Origin: a virus
Lineage: Duplodnaviria; Caudoviricetes
Direction: 5' to 3' (one strand)
IMG/VR virus record: IMGVR_UViG_3300030330_003397
Location: 1 to 37,755 of that record
Length of the DNA stretch: 37,755 nt
In this document: one piece after another, positions 1 to 37,755 of the stretch
How the letters are laid out: each line of letters starts with the position of its first letter
Position numbering within the stretch: position 1 is the stretch's first letter
Program-made: the position numbers and the translations under genes
The notes under the pieces: model-generated
Told to the model about the DNA's origin: nothing
What the model saw: only the letters and a program-made list of their open reading frames with translations
Databases searched by the model: none

Positions 1-120
1 GGCCCGTAAGCACACAGCGCCTCGTTTGTCAACCCACAGGGCGGCGAAAATTCACAAACCCACACATAAAATCGCTAAGTCTTATACATATTCTTATGAG
101 AATCTAGTCTAGCTCTGCGG

Positions 121-138
121 ACTAGATGTGCTATAATA
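121..138 (+). promoter_or_regulatory. Extended -10 promoter (TG-C-TATAAT) preceded by CTAG repeats
   Basis: ACTAGATGTGCTATAATA; near-identical ACTAGATGCTATAATA at 1454-1469. Confidence 0.6.
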
Positions 139-168
139 CACAAGCGTTCAGACATCTCGACGAGGATT

Positions 169-348
169 ATGTACGACGACTGGGATCTCGACTATACATA
201 CACACCCAACTATGAGTCTTATGATCTCGACGAGATCTATGAGTCTTACATTCAATCATTCTCACAGGATGATGATCTAGACTGTGATGACGAATACGAG
301 CGTGACACACAAGATTATGATGCACTTGCGTATCGTCATTACGCATGA
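169..348 (+). CDS. Small highly acidic Asp/Glu/Tyr-rich protein (59 aa, MYDDWDLDY...AYRHYA); not in ORF track
   Basis: Hand translation: ATG 169 to TGA 346-348; GAGGA RBS at 162-166; TATAAT at 132-137 upstream. Confidence 0.75.
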   Translation: MYDDWDLDYTYTPNYESYDLDEIYESYIQSFSQDDDLDCDDEYERDTQDYDALAYRHYA

Positions 349-378
349 TATAATAGGTACACCACGCACGCACCCGCC

Positions 379-552
379 ATGTCCGCACACACTATCACAC
401 AGAAGCGTCTTGTGACCGTGACGCTGGATATTATGTGTTACGATGATCTGCCACTAGAAGACCTGAACTGGACGGATCTCCTGGACTTACAGGGTGATGA
501 ATCAGTAGAGGTAAATGTCCGGGATTACAACAACGATATGCCAGTTTGGTAA
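379..552 (+). CDS. Small acidic hypothetical protein (57 aa, MSAHTITQKRLVTVTLDIMCYDD...MPVW); not in ORF track
   Basis: Hand translation ATG 379 to TAA 550-552; TATAAT at 349-354 and C/A-rich leader upstream. Confidence 0.75.
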   Translation: MSAHTITQKRLVTVTLDIMCYDDLPLEDLNWTDLLDLQGDESVEVNVRDYNNDMPVW

Positions 553-619
553 GTGTCTACTGGGTATTGACTCCACCGCTTCCATCCCGTATATTTGACT
601 CAGTTCAAACCACCGACCA
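539..619 (+). promoter_or_regulatory. Early promoter cassette: palindromic box + TTGACT-17-TATATT + C/A leader
   Basis: TGCCAGT-N6-AGTGTCTAC (to 560), -35 567-572, -10 590-595; near-direct repeat of 730-807. Confidence 0.8.
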
Positions 620-754
620 ATGAGTGCTTACCCGATGGAAGACTTCCGTGCTGACGTTGCGGAACTGTTCCGACTGATCAAGGCATGTGAGGAATCCCGT
701 GAGCGTTTGGAGGCGATGATCGCTGAGGAGGACACTTCTGAAACTGTCCACTGA
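620..754 (+). CDS. Small helical hypothetical protein (44 aa, MSAYPMEDFRADVAELFRL...SETVH); not in ORF track
   Basis: Hand translation ATG 620 to TGA 752-754; fills the space between two promoter cassettes exactly. Confidence 0.7.
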   Translation: MSAYPMEDFRADVAELFRLIKACEESRERLEAMIAEEDTSETVH

Positions 755-807
755 GTATTGACTCCACCGCTTCAAACCCTTATATTTGACTCAGTTCAAA
801 CAAACCA
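730..807 (+). promoter_or_regulatory. Early promoter cassette: palindromic box + TTGACT-17-TATATT + C/A leader
   Basis: GGACACT-N6-ACTGTCCAC (to 751), -35 758-763, -10 781-786; shares GTATTGACTCCACCGCTTC and TATATTTGACTCAGTTCAAAC with the previous cassette. Confidence 0.8.
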
Positions 808-1047
808 ATGACTGACACCACTTACAACGGATGGGCAAACTACGAAACGTGGAATGTCTCCCTGTGGATTGGCAACGACGAAGGTCTCTACAATGAGGCA
901 AAGCGTCTTGCTAAGTTTGGCAAAATGTACCAGGACCTGGTAGAATTGCTCTATGAGTGTGGCAGCACTGAAACGCCTGATGGTGTAAAGTGGAATGACC
1001 CTGCCATCGATGCGGGTGAAGTCACAGAGATGATGGACGATCTCTGA
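808..1047 (+). CDS. Conserved phage hypothetical protein (YNGWxNYETWNVxLW family)
   Basis: 79-aa ORF directly after a promoter cassette; N-terminal YNGWANYETWNVSLWIGNDE motif recalled from small phage proteins. Confidence 0.8.
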   Translation: MTDTTYNGWANYETWNVSLWIGNDEGLYNEAKRLAKFGKMYQDLVELLYECGSTETPDGVKWNDPAIDAGEVTEMMDDL

Positions 1048-1091
1048 ACTGGCACAAAGGGGTTGACACAGCATCAACCCCATCCTATACT
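1035..1091 (+). promoter_or_regulatory. Early promoter TTGACA-17-TATACT with upstream box and overlapping inverted repeat
   Basis: ACTGGCACA 1048-1056, TTGACA 1063-1068, TATACT 1086-1091; GGGGTTGA-N7-TCAACCCC 1059-1081. Confidence 0.85.
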
Positions 1092-1157
1092 AAGAACAAC
1101 AAGCGGGGGTGATGCATCCCGCTCAAAACACATCACATTCCATCGCTTTTTTTTATC

Positions 1158-1379
1158 ATGCAATTCGCAATCTCCAACTCCTCCGCCGTTGAGAACATCA
1201 GCATCGAGGATCAAACCGTGACCGTGACCTTCACTGGTGGTCGCTCCTACGATTACACCGTCAACGACGTGACTGCCTTCACCACTGCCTTGACTGCTGC
1301 TATGCAACCTGAGCAGTCTGTTGGTCGCTTTGTGAACAAGTCCATCAAGAACGAGACCCTTCAGAAAGTCTCTGCCTGA
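1158..1379 (+). CDS. KTSC-domain-like small nucleic-acid-binding protein
   Basis: SSAVENI..TVTVTFTGGRSYDY..SVGRFVNKSIK matches the KTSC pattern (SS-I..L-V-F--G--Y-Y..S-G-F-N--IK). Confidence 0.65.
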   Translation: MQFAISNSSAVENISIEDQTVTVTFTGGRSYDYTVNDVTAFTTALTAAMQPEQSVGRFVNKSIKNETLQKVSA

Positions 1380-1474
1380 TCTCGACTAGAATGTGCGCGG
1401 TCATCTAGATCGCGCATATTACAACTAGATACACACAACTAGACACATGCATCACTAGATGCTATAATAACTAG

Positions 1475-1591
1475 AGAGGAAAGGGTTCGCCTCTCACGAA
1501 ACGTAAAGTCACCCGGCGAGTAACGAAACACATAATTCTAGCATATTGGTTGGGTTTTCTGGCGGTCCTGGTGGTGCGGGACCGCTTTTTT
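1475..1591 (+). ncRNA. Candidate small RNA (about 115 nt)
   Basis: TATAAT at 1463-1468, 5' hairpin GAGAGG/CCTCTC, no + strand ATG ORF, ends in an intrinsic terminator; boundaries inferred. Confidence 0.5.
1562..1591 (+). terminator. Intrinsic terminator
   Basis: GCGGTCC (1562-1568) / GGACCGC (1579-1585) stem followed by TTTTTT. Confidence 0.8.
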
Positions 1592-1626
1592 ATGTGGCAC
1601 ACAGGATGCCACTAACGTCTACCTCC

Positions 1627-1685
1627 ACTCTAGCACACTGGGGGAGATAATGTGGGCAGCAGTGGACAGTTTGGCAACTGGCACA
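1627..1685 (-). promoter_or_regulatory. Minus-strand early-type promoter (box + extended -10 TG-C-TAGAGT)
   Basis: Box GTGGACAGT-N6-ACTGGCACA 1662-1685; minus-strand -10 starts at 1632, the same 30-nt offset as the + strand cassettes. Confidence 0.5.
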
Positions 1686-1774
1686 CGCCGGATCGTTGTT
1701 ATTATTTTGTGGCAGGATCAGTGTCGATGTATTGTCGTCAGCAGCGATACCCCTCGCCTCGTTTGATTTCCTAT

Positions 1775-1869
1775 AAGATAACAGGGATCCGAGTGCTATG
1801 GGGATTCGGTGTGACACTTTCTGAGGTGTCCACTATCGGTTGCGCTCGCTCGTTTCTAAGGGTCATTCT
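1775..1869. promoter_or_regulatory. Palindromic box with possible divergent promoters
   Basis: TGTGACACT-N6-GGTGTCCAC 1810-1833; minus -10 TATCTT starting at 1780 (30-nt offset); plus TTGCGC 1840-1845 / CATTCT 1864-1869. Confidence 0.5.
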
Positions 1870-1922
1870 GTGCCCATCGGATTCACACCCAACCCAACCG
1901 GATCCGCTCACCCCTTCTAATC

Positions 1923-2390
1923 ATGAGCACCACCATTCAAGTCACCATCAACGGCAACACTGTTGAGGGCGAAGTTGCATTCATTCAGGCAATCCTTGGT
2001 CAGAACACTAACATTCTGACAGCGCCGGTAACTAACACGAACTTCAAAGATATTGAAGAGTTCGATGTGTTCATGACTGCTATTCTCAAAGAGTATTTTT
2101 CAGAGCAACAATCGGAATCGATTGTGACAACGCTGAGTCAGATTTCACAACAAAATTATCCTGATTATCGCGGCGGTTTGGGACTCTATCAAATGTTCGT
2201 GGGAACGTTAGAGCAACGCCAACTTATGAAGGTAGTTTTTGCAACTTATGCTCTCAAATTTGGTCGGAACCACGATCACAAATCATCGCTCAAATCTAAG
2301 ATTAAATACGCTACTGCCTGCCCGCACTGCGGCGCTTATGCTTCTGCGATCCGTGACCGACTGATTAAGGAGGGTTATCTGTCATTCTGA
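1923..2390 (+). CDS. Hypothetical protein (155 aa) with C-terminal CPHC motif
   Basis: Long clean ORF after a promoter and CCCAACC leader. Confidence 0.8.
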   Translation: MSTTIQVTINGNTVEGEVAFIQAILGQNTNILTAPVTNTNFKDIEEFDVFMTAILKEYFSEQQSESIVTTLSQISQQNYPDYRGGLGLYQMFVGTLEQRQLMKVVFATYALKFGRNHDHKSSLKSKIKYATACPHCGAYASAIRDRLIKEGYLSF

Positions 2391-2431
2391 CCCTTTCTAT
2401 GGTATGATTTCTGTAGTTCACACCCAACCCG
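2367..2431 (+). promoter_or_regulatory. Hairpin + extended -10 (TGGTATGAT) cassette
   Basis: AGGGTTA/TGACCCT stem, TGGTATGAT 2400-2408, leader CACCCAACCCG-ATG. Confidence 0.7.
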
Positions 2432-2653
2432 ATGCGCCCCGTTATCGCCACCCCTGCTAAGTTCTCTGAGGTTCCGATTGGAGAGTCCTTTGTCTGCGAA
2501 CGCCTGCCCGGTTGGCACGTCGCCTGCTGGAAGACTACCACCCGCACCGCCGACGTACAGTTCCCTGAGAAGGTTGGCACCAAGGATGAGTGGGCGCAGT
2601 GGTATTTCAAGGCAAGCGATGACGTGACCCGTGGTCCGGTAGTGTTCGCTTGA
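2432..2653 (+). CDS. Hypothetical protein (73 aa)
   Basis: ORF starts right after the cassette leader and ends at the next cassette. Confidence 0.75.
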   Translation: MRPVIATPAKFSEVPIGESFVCERLPGWHVACWKTTTRTADVQFPEKVGTKDEWAQWYFKASDDVTRGPVVFA

Positions 2654-2656
2654 CAC

Positions 2657-2729
2657 ACTGGCACAAGGGGATGGCACAACATCGCCGTCCCCTGTATCTT
2701 ATAAAAGTCAATCAAACGACACCCAACCC
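2657..2729 (+). promoter_or_regulatory. Box half-site + hairpin + -10 cassette
   Basis: ACTGGCACA 2657-2665, AGGGGATGGC/GCCGTCCCCT 2666-2693, TATCTT 2695-2700, leader ACACCCAACCC-ATG. Confidence 0.7.
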
Positions 2730-2957
2730 ATGAAAGTTCAATCCCTTGGCGCAAACAAGACTCAAGTTGATCTGGCAGACGGAACCTCCGTGTTCTTCTC
2801 CTATAAAACCCCTGTTGCAGCATTGGTGCCTGGCAAAGGTTGGATTCGCACTAGTACCCGTTACAGTGTCACCACAACCAAACACATCAACCAGTGGATC
2901 GAAGCGCCTGCCACTGAAGTCGATCAGTGGGACATCGACCAACTAGTCGCTTTCTAA
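2730..2957 (+). CDS. Conserved phage hypothetical protein (FSYxTPVA...SxTTxKHINxW family)
   Basis: 75-aa ORF; motif recalled from small early phage proteins. Confidence 0.8.
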   Translation: MKVQSLGANKTQVDLADGTSVFFSYKTPVAALVPGKGWIRTSTRYSVTTTKHINQWIEAPATEVDQWDIDQLVAF

Positions 2958-2962
2958 ATTAA

Positions 2963-3024
2963 AGGTTAAGGGAGCGGCAACGCTCCCAACCTATGGTATG
3001 ATTTCTTCAGTCGCAACCAACCCG
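2963..3024 (+). promoter_or_regulatory. GCAA-loop hairpin + extended -10 cassette
   Basis: AGGTT..GGGAGCG[GCAA]CGCTCCC AACCT then ATGGTATGAT 2993-3002. Confidence 0.75.
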
Positions 3025-3276
3025 ATGCAACTCACTTCAAAGGACGGAAACATGGTTGTTGATTTTTACCCGGTAAAATTTGCTACGGGTAAGATTCATA
3101 ATCGCCTCATGCTTAAAGTTCTAACTTTCCAAGGTAAAACACAATCCAAGAGTTACATTCAGATTAAAGATTTCTCACACGAATTTAATTCCCGTGTGTA
3201 CGGTTACGGTTACAAGGTGACCAATTCTGATTTGATTCCACAATTGTTTAATTCTGCCATGGTCTGCGCTTGCTGA
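3025..3276 (+). CDS. Hypothetical protein (83 aa, MQLTSKDGNMVVDFYP...)
   Basis: Start moved from 2998 (inside the -10 box) to ATG 3025, which follows the CCAACCCG leader. Confidence 0.75.
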   Translation: MQLTSKDGNMVVDFYPVKFATGKIHNRLMLKVLTFQGKTQSKSYIQIKDFSHEFNSRVYGYGYKVTNSDLIPQLFNSAMVCAC

Positions 3277-3285
3277 TTTTCTTTA

Positions 3286-3345
3286 GGATTCAGGGGAGGC
3301 AACTCCCCTAATCCATGGTATGATTTCTTCAGTCGCATCCAACCG
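3286..3345 (+). promoter_or_regulatory. GCAA-loop hairpin + extended -10 cassette
   Basis: GGATT-C-AGGGGAG[GCAA]CTCCCCT-AATCC then ATGGTATGATTTCTTCAGTCGCA, identical to the stretch starting at 2993. Confidence 0.75.
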
Positions 3346-3582
3346 ATGATTTACTCCCCCGCCTCATCCATCGACGACCGGACTCGCGTATGGGTCGGAC
3401 GTCTGCCTGATCACGATAATGAAATGGCGATCAGCAGTCAGACACCGCCATCCTGCGGCGCTCCTGCCTGGTTCGTTGCTGCCCGTGAGAGTGCCCGCTG
3501 TGAGGTTCCGGACATTATCGGCACCGACGGTCTGGATGGTTGCATCGTGTGGGCACGATCCTGCCAGGGATCTAAGTTCTGA
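3346..3582 (+). CDS. Hypothetical protein (78 aa)
   Basis: ATG at the cassette-defined position; stop coincides with the next cassette. Confidence 0.65.
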   Translation: MIYSPASSIDDRTRVWVGRLPDHDNEMAISSQTPPSCGAPAWFVAARESARCEVPDIIGTDGLDGCIVWARSCQGSKF

Positions 3583-3591
3583 TTCTTTTAA

Positions 3592-3652
3592 GATTCGGGG
3601 GGTTACATACCCCCCATCCATGGTATGATTACTTCAGTTCCAACCAACCACC
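3592..3652 (+). promoter_or_regulatory. Hairpin + extended -10 cassette
   Basis: GGGGGGT-TACAT-ACCCCCC 3597-3615, TGGTATGAT 3621-3629, leader CCAACCAACCACC-ATG. Confidence 0.75.
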
Positions 3653-3928
3653 ATGGACGCCTTCAACACCTCACTCGACGCTTTCGAAGCGGAACTTAAC
3701 CGCATCGAACCCCTGGATCTGCCCGGTCTCCGCGAATACATTCAGGAACATCCTGGATGCGACTGGGAAGACGCTTGCGACTGGCATGAGCAGATCACCG
3801 GTCGCACCGTACCCGAAGAACAGTACGGGGAGATCGAAGCAGTCTGGCAGGAAGAATCCCAAGAGTGGGAACCGACTGACGATGAGATAATGGGAGCGTT
3901 CGGCACTCCCTGGCATGACGGATTGTGA
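3653..3928 (+). CDS. Highly acidic Trp-rich small protein (91 aa)
   Basis: About 25 D/E, no Lys, 3 Arg; cassette position. Confidence 0.8.
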   Translation: MDAFNTSLDAFEAELNRIEPLDLPGLREYIQEHPGCDWEDACDWHEQITGRTVPEEQYGEIEAVWQEESQEWEPTDDEIMGAFGTPWHDGL

Positions 3929-3937
3929 AGACTTTCG

Positions 3938-3999
3938 GAAGGGATCGCACTCCGGTCCCTTCTGTGCTTATAATAAAAGAGTCAACCACCCAACCTGAC
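3938..3999 (+). promoter_or_regulatory. Hairpin + TATAAT cassette
   Basis: GAAGGGATCG/CGGTCCCTTC 3938-3962, TATAAT 3969-3974, leader ACCCAACCTGAC-ATG. Confidence 0.75.
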
Positions 4000-4302
4000 A
4001 TGTTCACTTCAATCACCAACCGTTCAAAGTTCGGCGCTACCTATGAGTGGGCAGTGCTCTCCGTGCTCCCCATGGATGCAGACAAGGACCGCCATGGTCT
4101 GCGGGTCTGCGAGGTCAATAAGGCGCTGGGGATGCCCAAGGAGGCGCGGACCACTGCCACCCTGCTCCTGAAGCGTATGGCGGCAGAGGGTCTCATCCGT
4201 CGCTACGAATACAAGATCGGCAAGCGACCCTTCATCACTTACAAGCGGGTGATGCCACTCCGCAAGCGGGAGCGCCTAGCACGGATGCTCTGGGGACAGT
4301 GA
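4000..4302 (+). CDS. Basic winged-helix-like DNA-binding protein (100 aa)
   Basis: Start reassigned to ATG 4000 after the leader; GLRVCEVNKALGM..TTATLLLKRMAAEGLIRR resembles a wHTH helix-turn-helix and wing. Confidence 0.6.
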   Translation: MFTSITNRSKFGATYEWAVLSVLPMDADKDRHGLRVCEVNKALGMPKEARTTATLLLKRMAAEGLIRRYEYKIGKRPFITYKRVMPLRKRERLARMLWGQ

Positions 4303-4449
4303 TCCCCTGTGCCAGTCGTGGCGGTGGCACAGTGCCCCGCCGTGCCGCCGCCCCCCGGCGGTTTAAAAAGGCATGGGTCCCTCTAAGCTATAAAGTCTTG
4401 CTTTCGCGAGGTCTTTATATAACTCAAAGTTTTTCTATATAAAACAAAA

Positions 4450-4638
4450 ATGAAAACTGAAATACCTTGTATGAAAAAAAATCGCGGAGAAAATTTTTCG
4501 TCTGTAGAAGTCGATACAGTAACTGGGGAGTATGTCATCAAGGTTCCTGAGTGGATTATATCTGAGTTTGGGTGGTATGAGGGCACAGAGATAAACATGG
4601 AGGTTGATGGAGACGCTATCGTAGTTACCGAACTTTGA
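4450..4638 (+). CDS. AbrB/MazE/SpoVT-like DNA-binding protein
   Basis: GEYVIKVPEWIISEFGWYEGTEINMEVDGDAIVV fits the swapped-hairpin pattern; start could be 4471. Confidence 0.65.
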   Translation: MKTEIPCMKKNRGENFSSVEVDTVTGEYVIKVPEWIISEFGWYEGTEINMEVDGDAIVVTEL

Positions 4639-4640
4639 CC

Positions 4641-4669
4641 TAGACATTCATTGGTTCTCGTAGTATAAT
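4641..4669 (+). promoter_or_regulatory. Sigma70-like promoter TAGACA-17-TATAAT
   Basis: -35 4641-4646, -10 4664-4669, upstream of the GT-like gene. Confidence 0.6.
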
Positions 4670-4707
4670 TACCTTTGAATGCATTCACATTTCAAGTTGA
4701 CCAAATT

Positions 4708-5472
4708 ATGGCAAAAGGATTTACAGTAAAAGCAAAATCGCCCGCTAAGGATGAAGGGGGATCTGCTCCCAAGTATGATTACGACAAAGCAAGGGAAATG
4801 GTTCGTGGTAAGTCAGTAGTATTCTGTCTTCCTGGACGAGGAGTATCATACACGTATTTGAAGAACTTTGTACAACTTTGTTTTGACATTGTACAAATGG
4901 GAGGTAGTATTCAGATCTCTCAAGACTACAGTTCCATGGTAAACTTTGCACGTTGTAAGTGTCTTGGAGCAAACGTACTGCGTGGACCTGATCAGATTCC
5001 CTGGGATGGAAAACTGAAGTATGACTATCAGTTGTGGATTGATAGTGATATTGTGTTTAACACGGAGAAGTTTCTTCAGTTGGTTCTGATGGACAAGGAC
5101 ATTGCATCTGGTTGGTATTGCACTGAGGACGGACAGACAACCTCTGTAGCACACTGGATGGATGAAGATGATTTCCGTAGTAATGGTGGAGTGATGAATC
5201 ATGAAACCTTGGAGACCATCAGTAAGCGTAAGAAACCATTCACCGTTGATTATGCAGGTTTCGGATGGTTGCTCATCAAACATGGTGTTTTCGAGAACGA
5301 AAAGATCAAGTATCCATGGTTCGCTCCGAAGATGCAAGTCTTTGAGAGTGGTGAAGTTCAGGACATGTGTGGAGAAGATGTGTCGTTCTGTCTAGATGCT
5401 ATCGAAGCAGGATATGAGATTTGGTGTGATCCTAACATCAGAGTTGGTCACGAGAAGTCTCGTATTATCTGA
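4708..5472 (+). CDS. Glycosyltransferase family 2-like (GT-A fold) protein
   Basis: WIDSDIVF (DxD), GFGWLLIK, GEDVSFC, VGH motifs; ATG at 4708 (MAKGFTVK) preferred over 4675. Confidence 0.75.
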   Translation: MAKGFTVKAKSPAKDEGGSAPKYDYDKAREMVRGKSVVFCLPGRGVSYTYLKNFVQLCFDIVQMGGSIQISQDYSSMVNFARCKCLGANVLRGPDQIPWDGKLKYDYQLWIDSDIVFNTEKFLQLVLMDKDIASGWYCTEDGQTTSVAHWMDEDDFRSNGGVMNHETLETISKRKKPFTVDYAGFGWLLIKHGVFENEKIKYPWFAPKMQVFESGEVQDMCGEDVSFCLDAIEAGYEIWCDPNIRVGHEKSRII

Positions 5473-5815: not shown

Positions 5816-6496
5816 ATGGCTTGCTTGATTGCTAATCTTCCTTCTCAGGAAGTATGGGTCCGTAAAGAATATCTGACGGATCATCAATCTGGACACGGTG
5901 AGTTTGTAAAAGGCGTTTGGGTATCGGTTAAATCCATACCTGGACGCGCTTTTTATTTTGAAACTTACTTACCAGAATATGCGGCAATGTATGATAAATT
6001 GCCAATTAGTGCGTTTGTCTCTGATCCAGAAACTCCTACACCTGATATGGACCTCCCCAACCTACAGTTTTGGAACTGTATGGACTATGGTGTCGTCAGT
6101 GTAGACAAGAAGTTCATTGGTTCAATGGATTATGAGTGTTATACCCGTGATCACGGTATTGTAAAAGGGACTTATGTCTGTACGATTGACAACTATCATC
6201 ATGACCCGGACTACGTAGACTGGGCAACGAGTGAAAATCCTGCCGAACACAAGTCTCATAACCTAATTGAACTTGAAAATGGACAGTATGCACTCTATCC
6301 AAACAATAGATTACGTATCTTTGATAATAGTCTGACTCCTGTAGAACCAAAAATGCCTGATTTTAAGGTTTCTACTCAGTATTATCAAGTTGAAAATGGT
6401 TACAAGCGTCTCGGTATGGGTCGTGAAGATGAATACTTCTGGAAAACGGCAGACGAACGCGAAAATAAATACACTGAATCACCCAACGAGGACTAA
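5816..6496 (+). CDS. Conserved marine-phage hypothetical protein (226 aa)
   Basis: Long ORF with VRKEYL, LQFWNC, EHK, YPNNR motifs. Confidence 0.8.
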   Translation: MACLIANLPSQEVWVRKEYLTDHQSGHGEFVKGVWVSVKSIPGRAFYFETYLPEYAAMYDKLPISAFVSDPETPTPDMDLPNLQFWNCMDYGVVSVDKKFIGSMDYECYTRDHGIVKGTYVCTIDNYHHDPDYVDWATSENPAEHKSHNLIELENGQYALYPNNRLRIFDNSLTPVEPKMPDFKVSTQYYQVENGYKRLGMGREDEYFWKTADERENKYTESPNED

Positions 6497-7111: not shown

Positions 7112-8992
7112 ATGCCTTTTACTAAATTTACAAATCTAGATTTTGACCAAATTAGGTCCCAAATCAAAGACTATCTCCGTGCAAACTCTACGTTTACGGA
7201 CTTTGATTTTGAGGGATCTAATTTTTCTGTCTTAATTGACACGTTAGCGTATAATACTTACATTACTGCCTATAACTCAAACATGATTGTGAACGAATCC
7301 TTCTTGGATTCGGCAACTTTGAGGGAAAATGTTGTTTCTTTGGCAAGAAATATTGGTTATGTACCTCGCTCCAGAAGCGCCGCTAAGGCGCGTGTTAATC
7401 TGACGGTACAAACCACAAGCACATCACCTACAATGACCTTAGAGGCGGGTCTGGTGTGCGTAGGAAGCGTTAATGAGAGTCAATTTGTCTTCTCAGTTCC
7501 AGAAGATGTCACCACTACTATCAATTCTGGAACTGCTAAGTTTAAGGACCTTGATGTTTGCCAAGGAACTTACTTAAAAAAACAATTTGTCGTTGATGGA
7601 TCGTTAGATCAACGCTTTATTTTACAAAATCCCTTCATTGATACCTCCACAATCGTTGTAAAAGTCAAGGGAGCATCTGATTCTGGTGAAGGAAGAGAAT
7701 ATGAGATTGCCCAGAACATTTTAAACCTGAATAAGAACTCTGAAATCTATCTTTTACAAGAAGTTCAAGATGAAAGGTATGAACTTCTCTTCGGTGACGG
7801 ATATTTTGGTAAAAAATTAGAAAATGGAGCGATAATTACCGTTTCTTACATCACTACAGATGGTATTGATGGAAATGGAGCGAAAAATTTCGCATATTCT
7901 GGAAGAGTTACTGATAATCTTGGAAATGTGATTGTTCCAAGTAGTGATGTCACGATTTCAACCACTTCAAAGGCACAAAATGGTGGAGAAATTGAAAGTA
8001 TTGACTCAATTAAGTATTTTGCACCAAGAATTTACTCTTCACAGTACCGTGCAGTCACTGCTCGTGACTATGAGGCGATAATTCAGTCAATTTACCCCAA
8101 TACTGAGTCTGTTTCTGTTGTTGGTGGCGAAGAATTGGACCCACCTGAGTTTGGAAACGTAATTATTAGCATCAAACCCAAAAATGGTGACTTTGTTTCG
8201 GATTTTGACAAAGAATCCATCGCTACAAAACTCAAAAATTACTCTTTATCGGGTATAAACCAAAAAATTGTTGATCTTAAGGTACTTTTTGTTGAAATTG
8301 ACTCTGCAGTCTACTATAACAACGCAAAAGTATCAAATGTCAACGATTTGAAGTCAAAAGTTTCGTCAACACTGAATACTTTTGCCACAGCAAATATTAA
8401 TCAGTTTGGTGGACGCTTCAAATACAGTAAATTGTGTCAAACCATTGATAGTACTGATAGTGCTATTACTTCTAACATCACAAGAGTTAGAATTAGAAGA
8501 AATTTGAAAACATTGATCAATACTTCTGCACAGTATGAACTTTGCTATGGAAATAAGTTCCGTATGGATAAAAATGGATTTAACATCAAGAGTACAGGAT
8601 TTGGACTCTCTGGAAGAAGTGGAACATTCTATTTTACTGATACTCCAGGAGAAAATGATAAAGGAGTTATTTCTGTAGTTAAAGAAAGGAATGATGAAGG
8701 TGAATATGAGGTTGTAATCAAGTCAGCAGGAACAGTTGATTATGTGAAGGGTGAGATATTACTGAGTACGATCACATTCTCCTCTACAGTTAAAGAAAAT
8801 AATATTGTTGAGATTCAGGCAGTCCCCGATTCAAACGATGTTATAGGTTTGAAAGACCTTTATCTATCTTTCTCGGTTGCTGATAGTGAGATAAATATGA
8901 TTAAAGATACTATTACATCTGGCGAACAGATCTCTGGCGTCGGTTATAAAGTTACTTCAAGTTATCTAAACGGAGAACTTAAGAGAGGATAA
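7112..8992 (+). CDS. gp6: Baseplate wedge subunit, T4 gp6-like
   Basis: LDFDQI..FTDFDFEGS, ESFLDSATLRENVVSLARNIGY, RAVTARDYE; 626 aa. Confidence 0.95.
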   Translation: MPFTKFTNLDFDQIRSQIKDYLRANSTFTDFDFEGSNFSVLIDTLAYNTYITAYNSNMIVNESFLDSATLRENVVSLARNIGYVPRSRSAAKARVNLTVQTTSTSPTMTLEAGLVCVGSVNESQFVFSVPEDVTTTINSGTAKFKDLDVCQGTYLKKQFVVDGSLDQRFILQNPFIDTSTIVVKVKGASDSGEGREYEIAQNILNLNKNSEIYLLQEVQDERYELLFGDGYFGKKLENGAIITVSYITTDGIDGNGAKNFAYSGRVTDNLGNVIVPSSDVTISTTSKAQNGGEIESIDSIKYFAPRIYSSQYRAVTARDYEAIIQSIYPNTESVSVVGGEELDPPEFGNVIISIKPKNGDFVSDFDKESIATKLKNYSLSGINQKIVDLKVLFVEIDSAVYYNNAKVSNVNDLKSKVSSTLNTFATANINQFGGRFKYSKLCQTIDSTDSAITSNITRVRIRRNLKTLINTSAQYELCYGNKFRMDKNGFNIKSTGFGLSGRSGTFYFTDTPGENDKGVISVVKERNDEGEYEVVIKSAGTVDYVKGEILLSTITFSSTVKENNIVEIQAVPDSNDVIGLKDLYLSFSVADSEINMIKDTITSGEQISGVGYKVTSSYLNGELKRG

Positions 8993-36462: not shown

Positions 36463-37755
36463 AGAAGTGTAAGCAGGGGTATTACTACTGCTATAAAGAT
36501 AAAAAGTGTAAGCGAATCCCTGGTGGATATCGTGTAGGTCTGGGTGGGTATCTCCGCAGGGAAAGAGAAGAAGAGAGATCTGAGGATAGTGGCGAAACCG
36601 AAACCAAGAAAAATGGTAACGGAAATGGTAATGGTGGAAACGGCGGTAATGGTAATGGTGGAAACGGCGGTAATGGTGGAAATGGTGGCGGTGGTGTAAG
36701 TGAATCAGTAATGACTAAAGCGCAAATTAAAAAGCGTGATGAAATTGCTGACTCTATGAGTACAAGAGAATTCAATAAAAGATATGGTAAGGACCGTGGT
36801 AAGAGTGTGAAGTACGCTACTGCCACTAAACTTGCTATGGGAGAAGGGTGGTCAGATAAATATAAGAAGTCTATTGATTGTGATAATCCAAAAGGATTTT
36901 CTCAAAAAGCACACTGCCAAGGCAAAAAGAAAATGGACGAAGAAATTATCTCTGAAAAACGTGATGGTAAGTCTTCCAAAGACAAAGGATATTCTCTCCG
37001 CGACTGGTTCAAAGGTGGTGGTTGGAAACAGACTGGTGGTAAATATGATGGTAAGCCCTGTGCAAAACAACCTGGTCAAAAGACCAAACCATATTGTCGT
37101 GACGCAGACGACCGTGCTGCTATGAGTAAAGAAGAGAGAAACAAGAGAGCTGCTAAAAAGCGTAAAGAAGATCCAAATCCAAACAGAAAAGGGAAGGCAA
37201 AGAACGTGACTCAAGAATCGTATTCAAACTGGAGACAAGATCTTCAAGAAAAACCAGGTGATGGTTATCTTGGTCCAACACTTAAAGTTGGTAAAAAGGA
37301 ATACGGTGTTCCAAACCCTATTCGTATCGCAAAAGATGTTCATGATAATACGAATAGGGCACAAAAAAGAAGAAATGATGCGTACAATCAAGTGCAACCT
37401 GGTTCTGCAACATTTGTAACTCCATATTCAACTTTCAACAATCAAACAAGCACTGCTAGTCAGACACTTTTTGGAATGCAGAAGCAGTCTTATGAACCAG
37501 AAGGTGAGGTTGTTGAAGGACGTGATCCTGGACCTGGTGATGCTATGCCAGGACATGCGTTTTTCAAAAACGCTGCTGGAGGAATTACCACTTTAAATCA
37601 AGTTGACGCTAAAATTAAAGCAAAACAAGTAGATAAGAAAAAAGGTGTTAAAGAGGAGTTTGTAGAAGAAGGCAAGAAAGATGCTTGCTACCATAAGGTC
37701 AAGTCTCGCTATTCTGTCTGGCCAAGTGCTTATGCCTCTGGTGCATTAGTTAAGT
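36459..37755 (+). CDS. Modular basic protein, 3'-truncated by window end (at least 432 aa); not in ORF track
   Basis: Hand translation from ATG 36459 (MKKCKQGYYYC...) is open to the last base; late promoter motif 36429-36436. Confidence 0.85.
   Translation, partial: MKKCKQGYYYCYKDKKCKRIPGGYRVGLGGYLRREREEERSEDSGETETKKNGNGNGNGGNGGNGNGGNGGNGGNGGGGVSESVMTKAQIKKRDEIADSMSTREFNKRYGKDRGKSVKYATATKLAMGEGWSDKYKKSIDCDNPKGFSQKAHCQGKKKMDEEIISEKRDGKSSKDKGYSLRDWFKGGGWKQTGGKYDGKPCAKQPGQKTKPYCRDADDRAAMSKEERNKRAAKKRKEDPNPNRKGKAKNVTQESYSNWRQDLQEKPGDGYLGPTLKVGKKEYGVPNPIRIAKDVHDNTNRAQKRRNDAYNQVQPGSATFVTPYSTFNNQTSTASQTLFGMQKQSYEPEGEVVEGRDPGPGDAMPGHAFFKNAAGGITTLNQVDAKIKAKQVDKKKGVKEEFVEEGKKDACYHKVKSRYSVWPSAYASGALVK
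36612..36695 (+). repeat. Gly/Asn low-complexity tandem repeat (NGNGG)n
   Basis: Repeated AATGGT/GGAAACGGCGGT units in frame. Confidence 0.9.

Follow-up and report, generated by a model that had tools for sequence, protein, structure and literature searches.

The window analyzed here, a 37,755-nt stretch of viral DNA, is a piece of a large T4-like cyanophage genome and, judging from its sequence, likely encodes a stable small RNA of about 120 nt at positions 1474-1591. We hold with high confidence that this is a real, conserved, structured RNA element lacking an Rfam family, and consider it probable that the RNA pairs with early leaders of the phage, whatever the sign or aim of this pairing. 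The element has features by which trans-acting base-pairing sRNAs are recognized, namely, its own promoter and intrinsic terminator without a conserved ORF, a conserved secondary structure with covariation, and a seed whose complementarity to several initiation regions exceeds chance. As to its function, we lean toward an antisense RNA that represses SD-less early leaders in the manner of GcvB, a functional counterpart of T4 RegB that possibly also blocks superinfecting relatives.

The element and its predicted targets in the window

A 254-aa protein encoded at 4708 shares 85-86% identity with its counterparts in ACG-2014f, S-SKS1, and S-SRM01. Positions 1-4300 are filled with short single-gene cassettes, mostly uncharacterized, which are termed early on the basis of their sigma70-type promoters and layout. 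The promoter-leader cassettes at 567-619 and 758-807 are near-identical, and similar leader blocks repeat upstream of ATGs 2432, 3025, 3346, and 3653; these repeats suggest that promoter-leader modules have been shuffled. The features identified are the following:

1440-1468, + strand: sigma70-type promoter with -35 TAGACA (1440), spacing of 17, and extended -10 TG.TATAAT (1463-1468); 11 of 12 matches
1474-1495, + strand: 5' hairpin P1 (1474-1479 with 1490-1495), with pseudoknot strand 1483-1486 in its loop
1505-1514, + strand: conserved AAAG and 3' pseudoknot strand ACCC (1511-1514), with compensatory variants
1532-1536, + strand: AUAAU in the linker, with a conservation of at least 90% among 49 aligned sequences
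1542-1558, + strand: G/U-rich seed tract, consisting of an anti-AUG (CAT) followed by GGTTGGGT (1548-1555)
1561-1591, + strand: intrinsic terminator with a 10-bp stem (1561-1586) and U tract; loop GTGGTG at 1571-1576
600-4002, + strand: predicted targets, the C/A-rich SD-less leaders of early cassettes with ATGs at 620, 808, 1923, 2432, 2730, 3025, 3346, 3653, and 4000
1102-1134, + strand: second pseudoknot of the same architecture, 5' leader of a KTSC-like ORF (1158-1379)

The original prediction had described a noncoding unit running from promoter to terminator, and this unit was recovered: the -10 box at 1463-1468 is real, and the ORF-less stretch ends in a strong terminator. Not noticed in that prediction were the -35 box, the pseudoknot at the 5' end, and the terminator loop, which is conserved and may constitute a second seed. 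The AUAAU motif, which is kept at 90% or more in both subfamilies described below and whose distance to the pseudoknot varies, is a candidate protein site, processing site, or internal -10 box.

The early leaders contain little G. They had been described as lacking an SD, which holds for 11 of 12, in which any SD-like 4-mer is absent, and fails for the leader of ATG 169, with its SD-like GAGG. The seed tract CATATTGGTTGGGTTTT was located at 1542-1558, and a search of the + strand over the whole 37.7-kb window gave a single copy of its core GGTTGGGT. The leader motif ACCCAACC, to which this core was predicted to be complementary, is present at 1887, 1892, 2422, 2721, and 3988 and missing from the 33.3 kb outside 1-4450, and CCAACC occurs 11 times in 1-4450 and 6 times in the rest of the window. 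The ACCAATG starts assigned to 620 and 808 do exist, at 616 and 804, since 620 and 808 are the positions of the ATGs themselves. A location of the motif within about 10 nt of the ATG does not apply to the copies at 1887/1892, which lie some 25-30 nt upstream of ATG 1923.

When 74,176 stretches of 25 nt are ranked by how well their 6-mers complement the 12 early leaders, the seed falls into the top 0.04% and is tied first with one at 37016; its mean duplex energy with the leaders is -12.1, compared to -8.2 for 500 shuffles (p 0.004). Both of these figures come from the window alone and carry the selection bias of a window flagged for exactly that match. Watson-Crick matches of at least 7 nt were found in 7/12 early leaders versus 2/16 other window genes. 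Nine leaders form predicted duplexes of between -12.6 and -20.6 kcal/mol, and ATGs 1158, 4450, and 4708 form duplexes of between -7.4 and -9.7. The predicted duplexes span the last 10-20 nt upstream of the AUG and often the AUG too.

The notion of a short unpaired seed was not confirmed, as the predicted structure pairs much of it. The pseudoknot-free MFE structure, obtained with a folding program that cannot model the pseudoknot, pairs the seed with 1511-1517. The predicted cost of freeing the seed is 9.6 kcal/mol and drops to 4.8 when the pseudoknot strands are kept aside, and the mean unpaired probability of the seed is 0.38-0.42 in 77 homologues. One may speculate that the alternative ACCC:seed stem of this model corresponds to an off state. 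Parts of positions 1-4500 are present in 13 sequencing runs, 5 of which are recorded as RNA, and contigs from four RNA-labelled runs, one spanning 1291-1602, cover the region; these contigs are unstranded, give neither transcript ends nor an expression level, and possibly stem from DNA.

Distribution and structure of the RNA family

The element belongs to an RNA family carried by many large viruses of cyanobacteria from marine and fresh waters; its members come from about 100 contigs of uncultured phages and from three isolates, S-SRM01, S-SKS1, and B23. In S-SRM01, BLAST detected a homologue that is unannotated and lies within the early region. A pattern built on the 5' part of the element matched 78 IMG/VR loci, which together with the window and S-SRM01 make 80 matches, 66 of them distinct. 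A terminator is located at the end of 75/80; the five others correspond to 2 contig ends, 1 chance match, and 2 copies of the 5' module alone that lead an ORF. Leaving four loop bases free and the partner unspecified uncovered a second subfamily of 28 loci. A metagenome scan returned at least 120 matches, among them 9 incomplete ones and 78 distinct copies with a terminator, 74 of which carry TGGT in a terminator loop that was not imposed by the pattern. Chance pattern matches (L019, L025, L027, L073, and about half of L112-L172) were discarded, as were 10 distinct metagenome matches without a terminator.

A covariance model matched S-SKS1 (E 3e-12), B23 (E 2e-4), and a pseudoknot-less look-alike in ACG-2014f. 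The latter unit (L217, KJ019151.1 127410-127515) comprises a TATAAT, a hairpin, a G/U tract, and a terminator with a TGGT loop. Matches below E 0.1 were absent from 10/14 isolates, including Syn9, S-PM2, and P-SSM2, and the model detected no copy among the 150 candidates scored per genome in five picocyanobacterial genomes. Terminator scans of Syn9, S-PM2, S-SM2, and Sf-CH5 detected no analogue of the G/U tract. Since C/A-rich early leaders are also present in S-SM2 and P-SSM2 while 10/14 isolates have no match, the RNA is not required.

In Rfam 15, nothing above the gathering threshold was obtained for window positions 1-5000, the best hit being L20_leader with 22 bits versus 58.7, and nothing above threshold over the element for six homologous loci; the family, with its pseudoknot, seed, and GUGGUG loop, is thus new to Rfam 15. 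The ncRNAs known from T4-like cyanophages are CfrI, PhotoRC-II, wcaG, manA, glnA, and abiF, none of which has an Rfam match to the element and for none of which the accessible parts of the sources describe a targeting of early leaders (PMC9964418, PMC12197685). CfrI, unlike the window RNA, is an antisense RNA at psbA. In the largely open-access literature that was searched, which includes the accessible text of PMC5931967 and PMC5737381, there is no description of this RNA or of a lytic phage whose sRNA is directed against a tag common to that phage's early mRNAs; the large catalogue of candidate viral RNAs in PMC10690425 may list the motif unnamed.

A promoter with at least 10/12 matches is found on the + strand at the same place in 48/58 distinct homologues. 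Other copies sit after an ORF or a tRNA, where the RNA would be processed from a longer transcript. The S-SKS1 copy (minus strand of HQ633071, 178089-178214) is separated from the early cassettes by some 20 kb or more; it lies 3' of tRNA-Leu and begins directly after this tRNA (HQ633071.1 178089-178292), which suggests that the 5' end of the RNA is made by tRNA processing.

In 49 aligned sequences, 86.7% of the cells are paired, compared to 69.9% in shuffles, and both-sided changes affect 4/6 P1 pairs and 3/5 pseudoknot pairs. In P1, the alignment is out of register by one column for subfamily 2, and some bases are predetermined by the patterns. The loop and partner strands of subfamily 2 read GGAGU/ACUUC, GGAAGU/ACUUC, GAUGU/ACAUC, and GAGU/ACUC, with GGGU/ACCC elsewhere; because these variants were found with the partner strand left free, they provide unforced support for an H-type pseudoknot. 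A seed that is a mere partner of the ACCC strand was ruled out, as subfamily 2 alters this strand and keeps the G/U motifs of the seed.

The fold is not confined to the RNA. The loop and partner strand of the pseudoknot at 1102-1134 change together in L057 and L064. Window positions 1063-1157 hold a promoter followed by this KTSC-leader pseudoknot; other KTSC-like genes instead follow tRNA-Leu. At positions 5996-6052 of both L071 and L094, a near-identical version of the sRNA's pseudoknot alone leads a 35-codon ORF, and the pseudoknot module is therefore portable. The KTSC protein was ruled out as an obligate partner, its gene being present in 2/21 records, one of which is S-PM2, a phage without the RNA. 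A search for a solved relative of this protein found none.

Complementarity of seeds and leaders across the family

The original prediction held that one RNA may address the early leaders and proposed to check relatives for covariation of seed and leader motif. Complementarity beyond base composition and covariation at the level of lineages were detected; a strict specificity for the phage's own leaders was not, and the signal in sister pairs is weak. The S-SKS1 seed has matches of at least 7 nt in 6/19 of its own early leaders versus 4/153 of its other leaders, and the tract of the pseudoknot-less ACG-2014f unit in 10/20 versus 5/112. When tests were restricted to leaders with at least 7 C in 20 nt, seeds outperformed dinucleotide-shuffled seeds in 21/25 clusters (10 at p<=0.05), and real leaders outperformed shuffled leaders in 18/25 (10 at p<=0.05). 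With the window clade removed, cognate leaders were preferred over noncognate ones by duplex energy (p 0.003 for 24 clusters and 0.024 for 30 clusters), and the length of the longest perfect match gave no significant preference (p 0.38 and 0.32), all p values overstating independence because the clusters are related. Sister pairs favored the cognate combination in 9/12 and 9/16 cases by energy and in 5/12 and 8/16 by match length. A first, crude test on all ATGs, in which the window clade was missing, gave no signal (p 0.13-0.64).

Subfamily 2 was held out from the cluster and cognate tests. Its seeds contain GGUUGG in 9/12 cases, as opposed to 1/44 for subfamily 1 outside the window clade, and CCAACC is found in 13/60 of its leaders, compared to 25/528 for subfamily 1 outside the window clade and 15/35 for the window clade. 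Like the window, subfamily 2 hence couples GGUUGG seeds with CCAACC-enriched leaders. The terminator loop is GUGGUG in 22/25 seed clusters and complements the two commonest leader 5-mers, ACCAC (298/563) and CACCA (237/563), and a CAT immediately precedes the G/U tract on its 5' side in 34/58 distinct homologues.

Some seeds fit the leaders of other phages better than their own. The S-SKS1 seed fits 13/20 ACG-2014f leaders, compared to 10/20 for ACG's own seed; the ACG seed in turn fits 7/12 S-SRM01 leaders, compared to 4/12 for the S-SRM01 seed; and the B23 seed has a weak self-fit (3/15). No fit was seen in clades L093, L100, L059, and L082. A G/U-rich RNA is sticky toward any C/A-rich RNA. 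Taken together, the comparisons support an RNA that appears tuned to the early-leader class, with a coevolution at the lineage level and not base by base.

Favored mechanism and alternative readings

Under the favored reading of a GcvB-like repressor, host RNA polymerase would transcribe the RNA together with the early genes, and the pseudoknot and terminator would shield its two ends, so that it accumulates and outlasts the mRNAs. Its GUGGUG loop and linear tract would pair with ACCAC- and ACCCAACC-type motifs beside the AUG and thereby occlude 30S entry and block translation of the early leaders, the outcome being a delayed shutoff of the early gene set. The early mRNAs of a related phage that enters later would likewise encounter the RNA made before its arrival. 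Repression is preferred over activation because the duplex lies at the last 10-20 nt and the AUG. A wider proposal, which we advance tentatively as a possibility short of even odds, is an RNA address system of lytic cyanophages: a C/A-rich tag would replace the SD on every early mRNA and be read by one mobile pseudoknot-capped RNA, whose two recognition elements would be a near-fixed loop and a tract that can be retuned. This RNA would set the moment at which the early phase ends and shut out relatives, and tag and seed would drift together from lineage to lineage. Under the favored reading, an RNA would perform the set-wide switch-off of early messages that is otherwise known for a protein. 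An RNA reading SD-less leaders would provide an early shutoff mechanism in abundant aquatic phages, would reveal a leader element that drives initiation in picocyanobacteria, and could amount to an RNA-based superinfection exclusion in a lytic phage.

The closest functional parallel has a G/U-rich seed and is Hfq-dependent: the enterobacterial sRNA GcvB. In the accessible text on this multitarget sRNA, it silences ACA enhancers, acting on C/A-rich translation-enhancer elements of leaders (PMC3879156). GcvB resembles the window RNA in its many targets and their C/A-rich leader elements; it is chromosomal and acts beside an SD on mRNAs for amino acid transport, whereas the window RNA is phage encoded, shorter, and starts with a pseudoknot, and it is predicted to target early leaders of the phage that lack an SD. 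As no match to the GcvB model was obtained in the Rfam search, the RNA is taken to work like GcvB without being a member of its family. The T4 endoribonuclease RegB, according to the portion of the source available, inactivates early mRNAs via a GGAG tag common to initiation regions (PMC3014915). RegB is a protein that cuts GGAG with S1 and helps to end T4 early expression. Its tag is not available here, because 11/12 early leaders have no SD-like 4-mer; the window RNA is proposed as its functional counterpart and not as a homologue.

Among the alternatives, the same pairing could have superinfection exclusion as its main job, a resident RNA silencing the early genes of relatives that enter later. 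The P4 CI RNA and the C4 antisense RNA of phages P1 and P7 serve as comparison systems. In the accessible text, C4 is trans-acting with two short target recognition elements, the variable one conferring specificity, and is linked to superinfection immunity (PMC5320573), which provides a precedent. C4 belongs to temperate phages, has three stem-loops, depends on RNase P processing, and targets one operon, whereas the window RNA is found in T4-like cyanophages, consists of a pseudoknot and a terminator, and has about nine separate predicted targets; with neither the three-stem-loop fold nor an Rfam match, it is not a C4 RNA. The equal or better fit of seeds to foreign leaders, the near-invariant loop matching leader 5-mers family-wide, and the weak fine-scale coevolution would also suit exclusion. 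The way in which the seed follows leaders that shift to CCAACC points instead to self targets, and the window seed matches only 0/19 S-SKS1 and 2/20 ACG-2014f leaders, so that exclusion as the main function appears unlikely.

It is likewise improbable that the RNA is a decoy or scaffold whose pseudoknot, AUAAU, and GGU/GUG repeats bind a host protein (S1, an RRM protein, or a nuclease), with complementarity as a by-product. A scaffold that is more conserved than the seed and the occurrence of the same fold at the start of mRNAs speak for this idea, as does tisB, where a pseudoknot near the RNA 5' end binds S1/30S at a standby site in the accessible part of the report (PMC7708055). The window fold is tisB-like in position and also begins mRNAs (1102-1134, L071, L094); the likeness is positional, and S1 binding is hypothetical. 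A decoy would leave unexplained the covariation of seed and leaders, the anti-AUG in 34/58 homologues, and the excess over dinucleotide shuffles, and the neighboring KTSC gene, in just 2/21 records including the RNA-less S-PM2, offers little as a partner.

Pairing might instead activate or stabilize early mRNAs, for instance if the duplex kept RNase E/J away or if the pseudoknot brought in 30S. In phage-infected Prochlorococcus, antisense RNA protects against RNase E, which counts in favor of this option, and the S1-binding pseudoknot, in the text available, is a further precedent (PMC7708055). The duplexes cover the last 10-20 nt and often the AUG, where pairing normally blocks initiation, and G-poor leaders have little structure to open, which makes activation quite improbable.

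A few host mRNAs with C/A-rich leaders as the true targets would agree with the 17/700 leaders of Synechococcus MIT S9451 that match the window seed over at least 7 nt and the 5/700 that match over at least 8 nt. This is very unlikely given that 2.4% is far below the 58% of early leaders and that ACCCAACC occurs in 0/700, figures that refer to an 800-kb sample of one proxy host with crude start calls.

That the seed is a mere leader of a minus-strand microgene of 11 codons (ATG 1544-1542), a possibility by which the original prediction had said it could fall, is extremely unlikely: this ORF exists in 18/58 homologues, including the closest relatives L063 and L072, but among the other homologues 10 have a stop after 2 codons, 15 have no such ORF, and 15 have one of different length, so that it is not conserved in frame; a promoter of at least 10/12 lies on the minus strand in 6/58 versus 48/58 on the + strand, and both the U tract and the G-U pairs identify the + strand as the transcribed one. 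An SD mimic plugging the 16S 3' tail and blocking SD-led host translation is scarcely credible, since AGGTGA is present in 26/65 distinct seeds but GGAGG, and with it a conserved complement of the tail, in 0/65, with a median shuffle p of 0.23 and a match of the window seed to the tail over 3 nt only.

On the 3' side of the terminator, a conserved noncoding element (window positions of about 1690-1790) is present in many relatives; its minus-strand promoter spacing is inconsistent. The same element is found in L001 at about 6130-6200 and 7685-7760, and it recurs after another S-SRM01 terminator.
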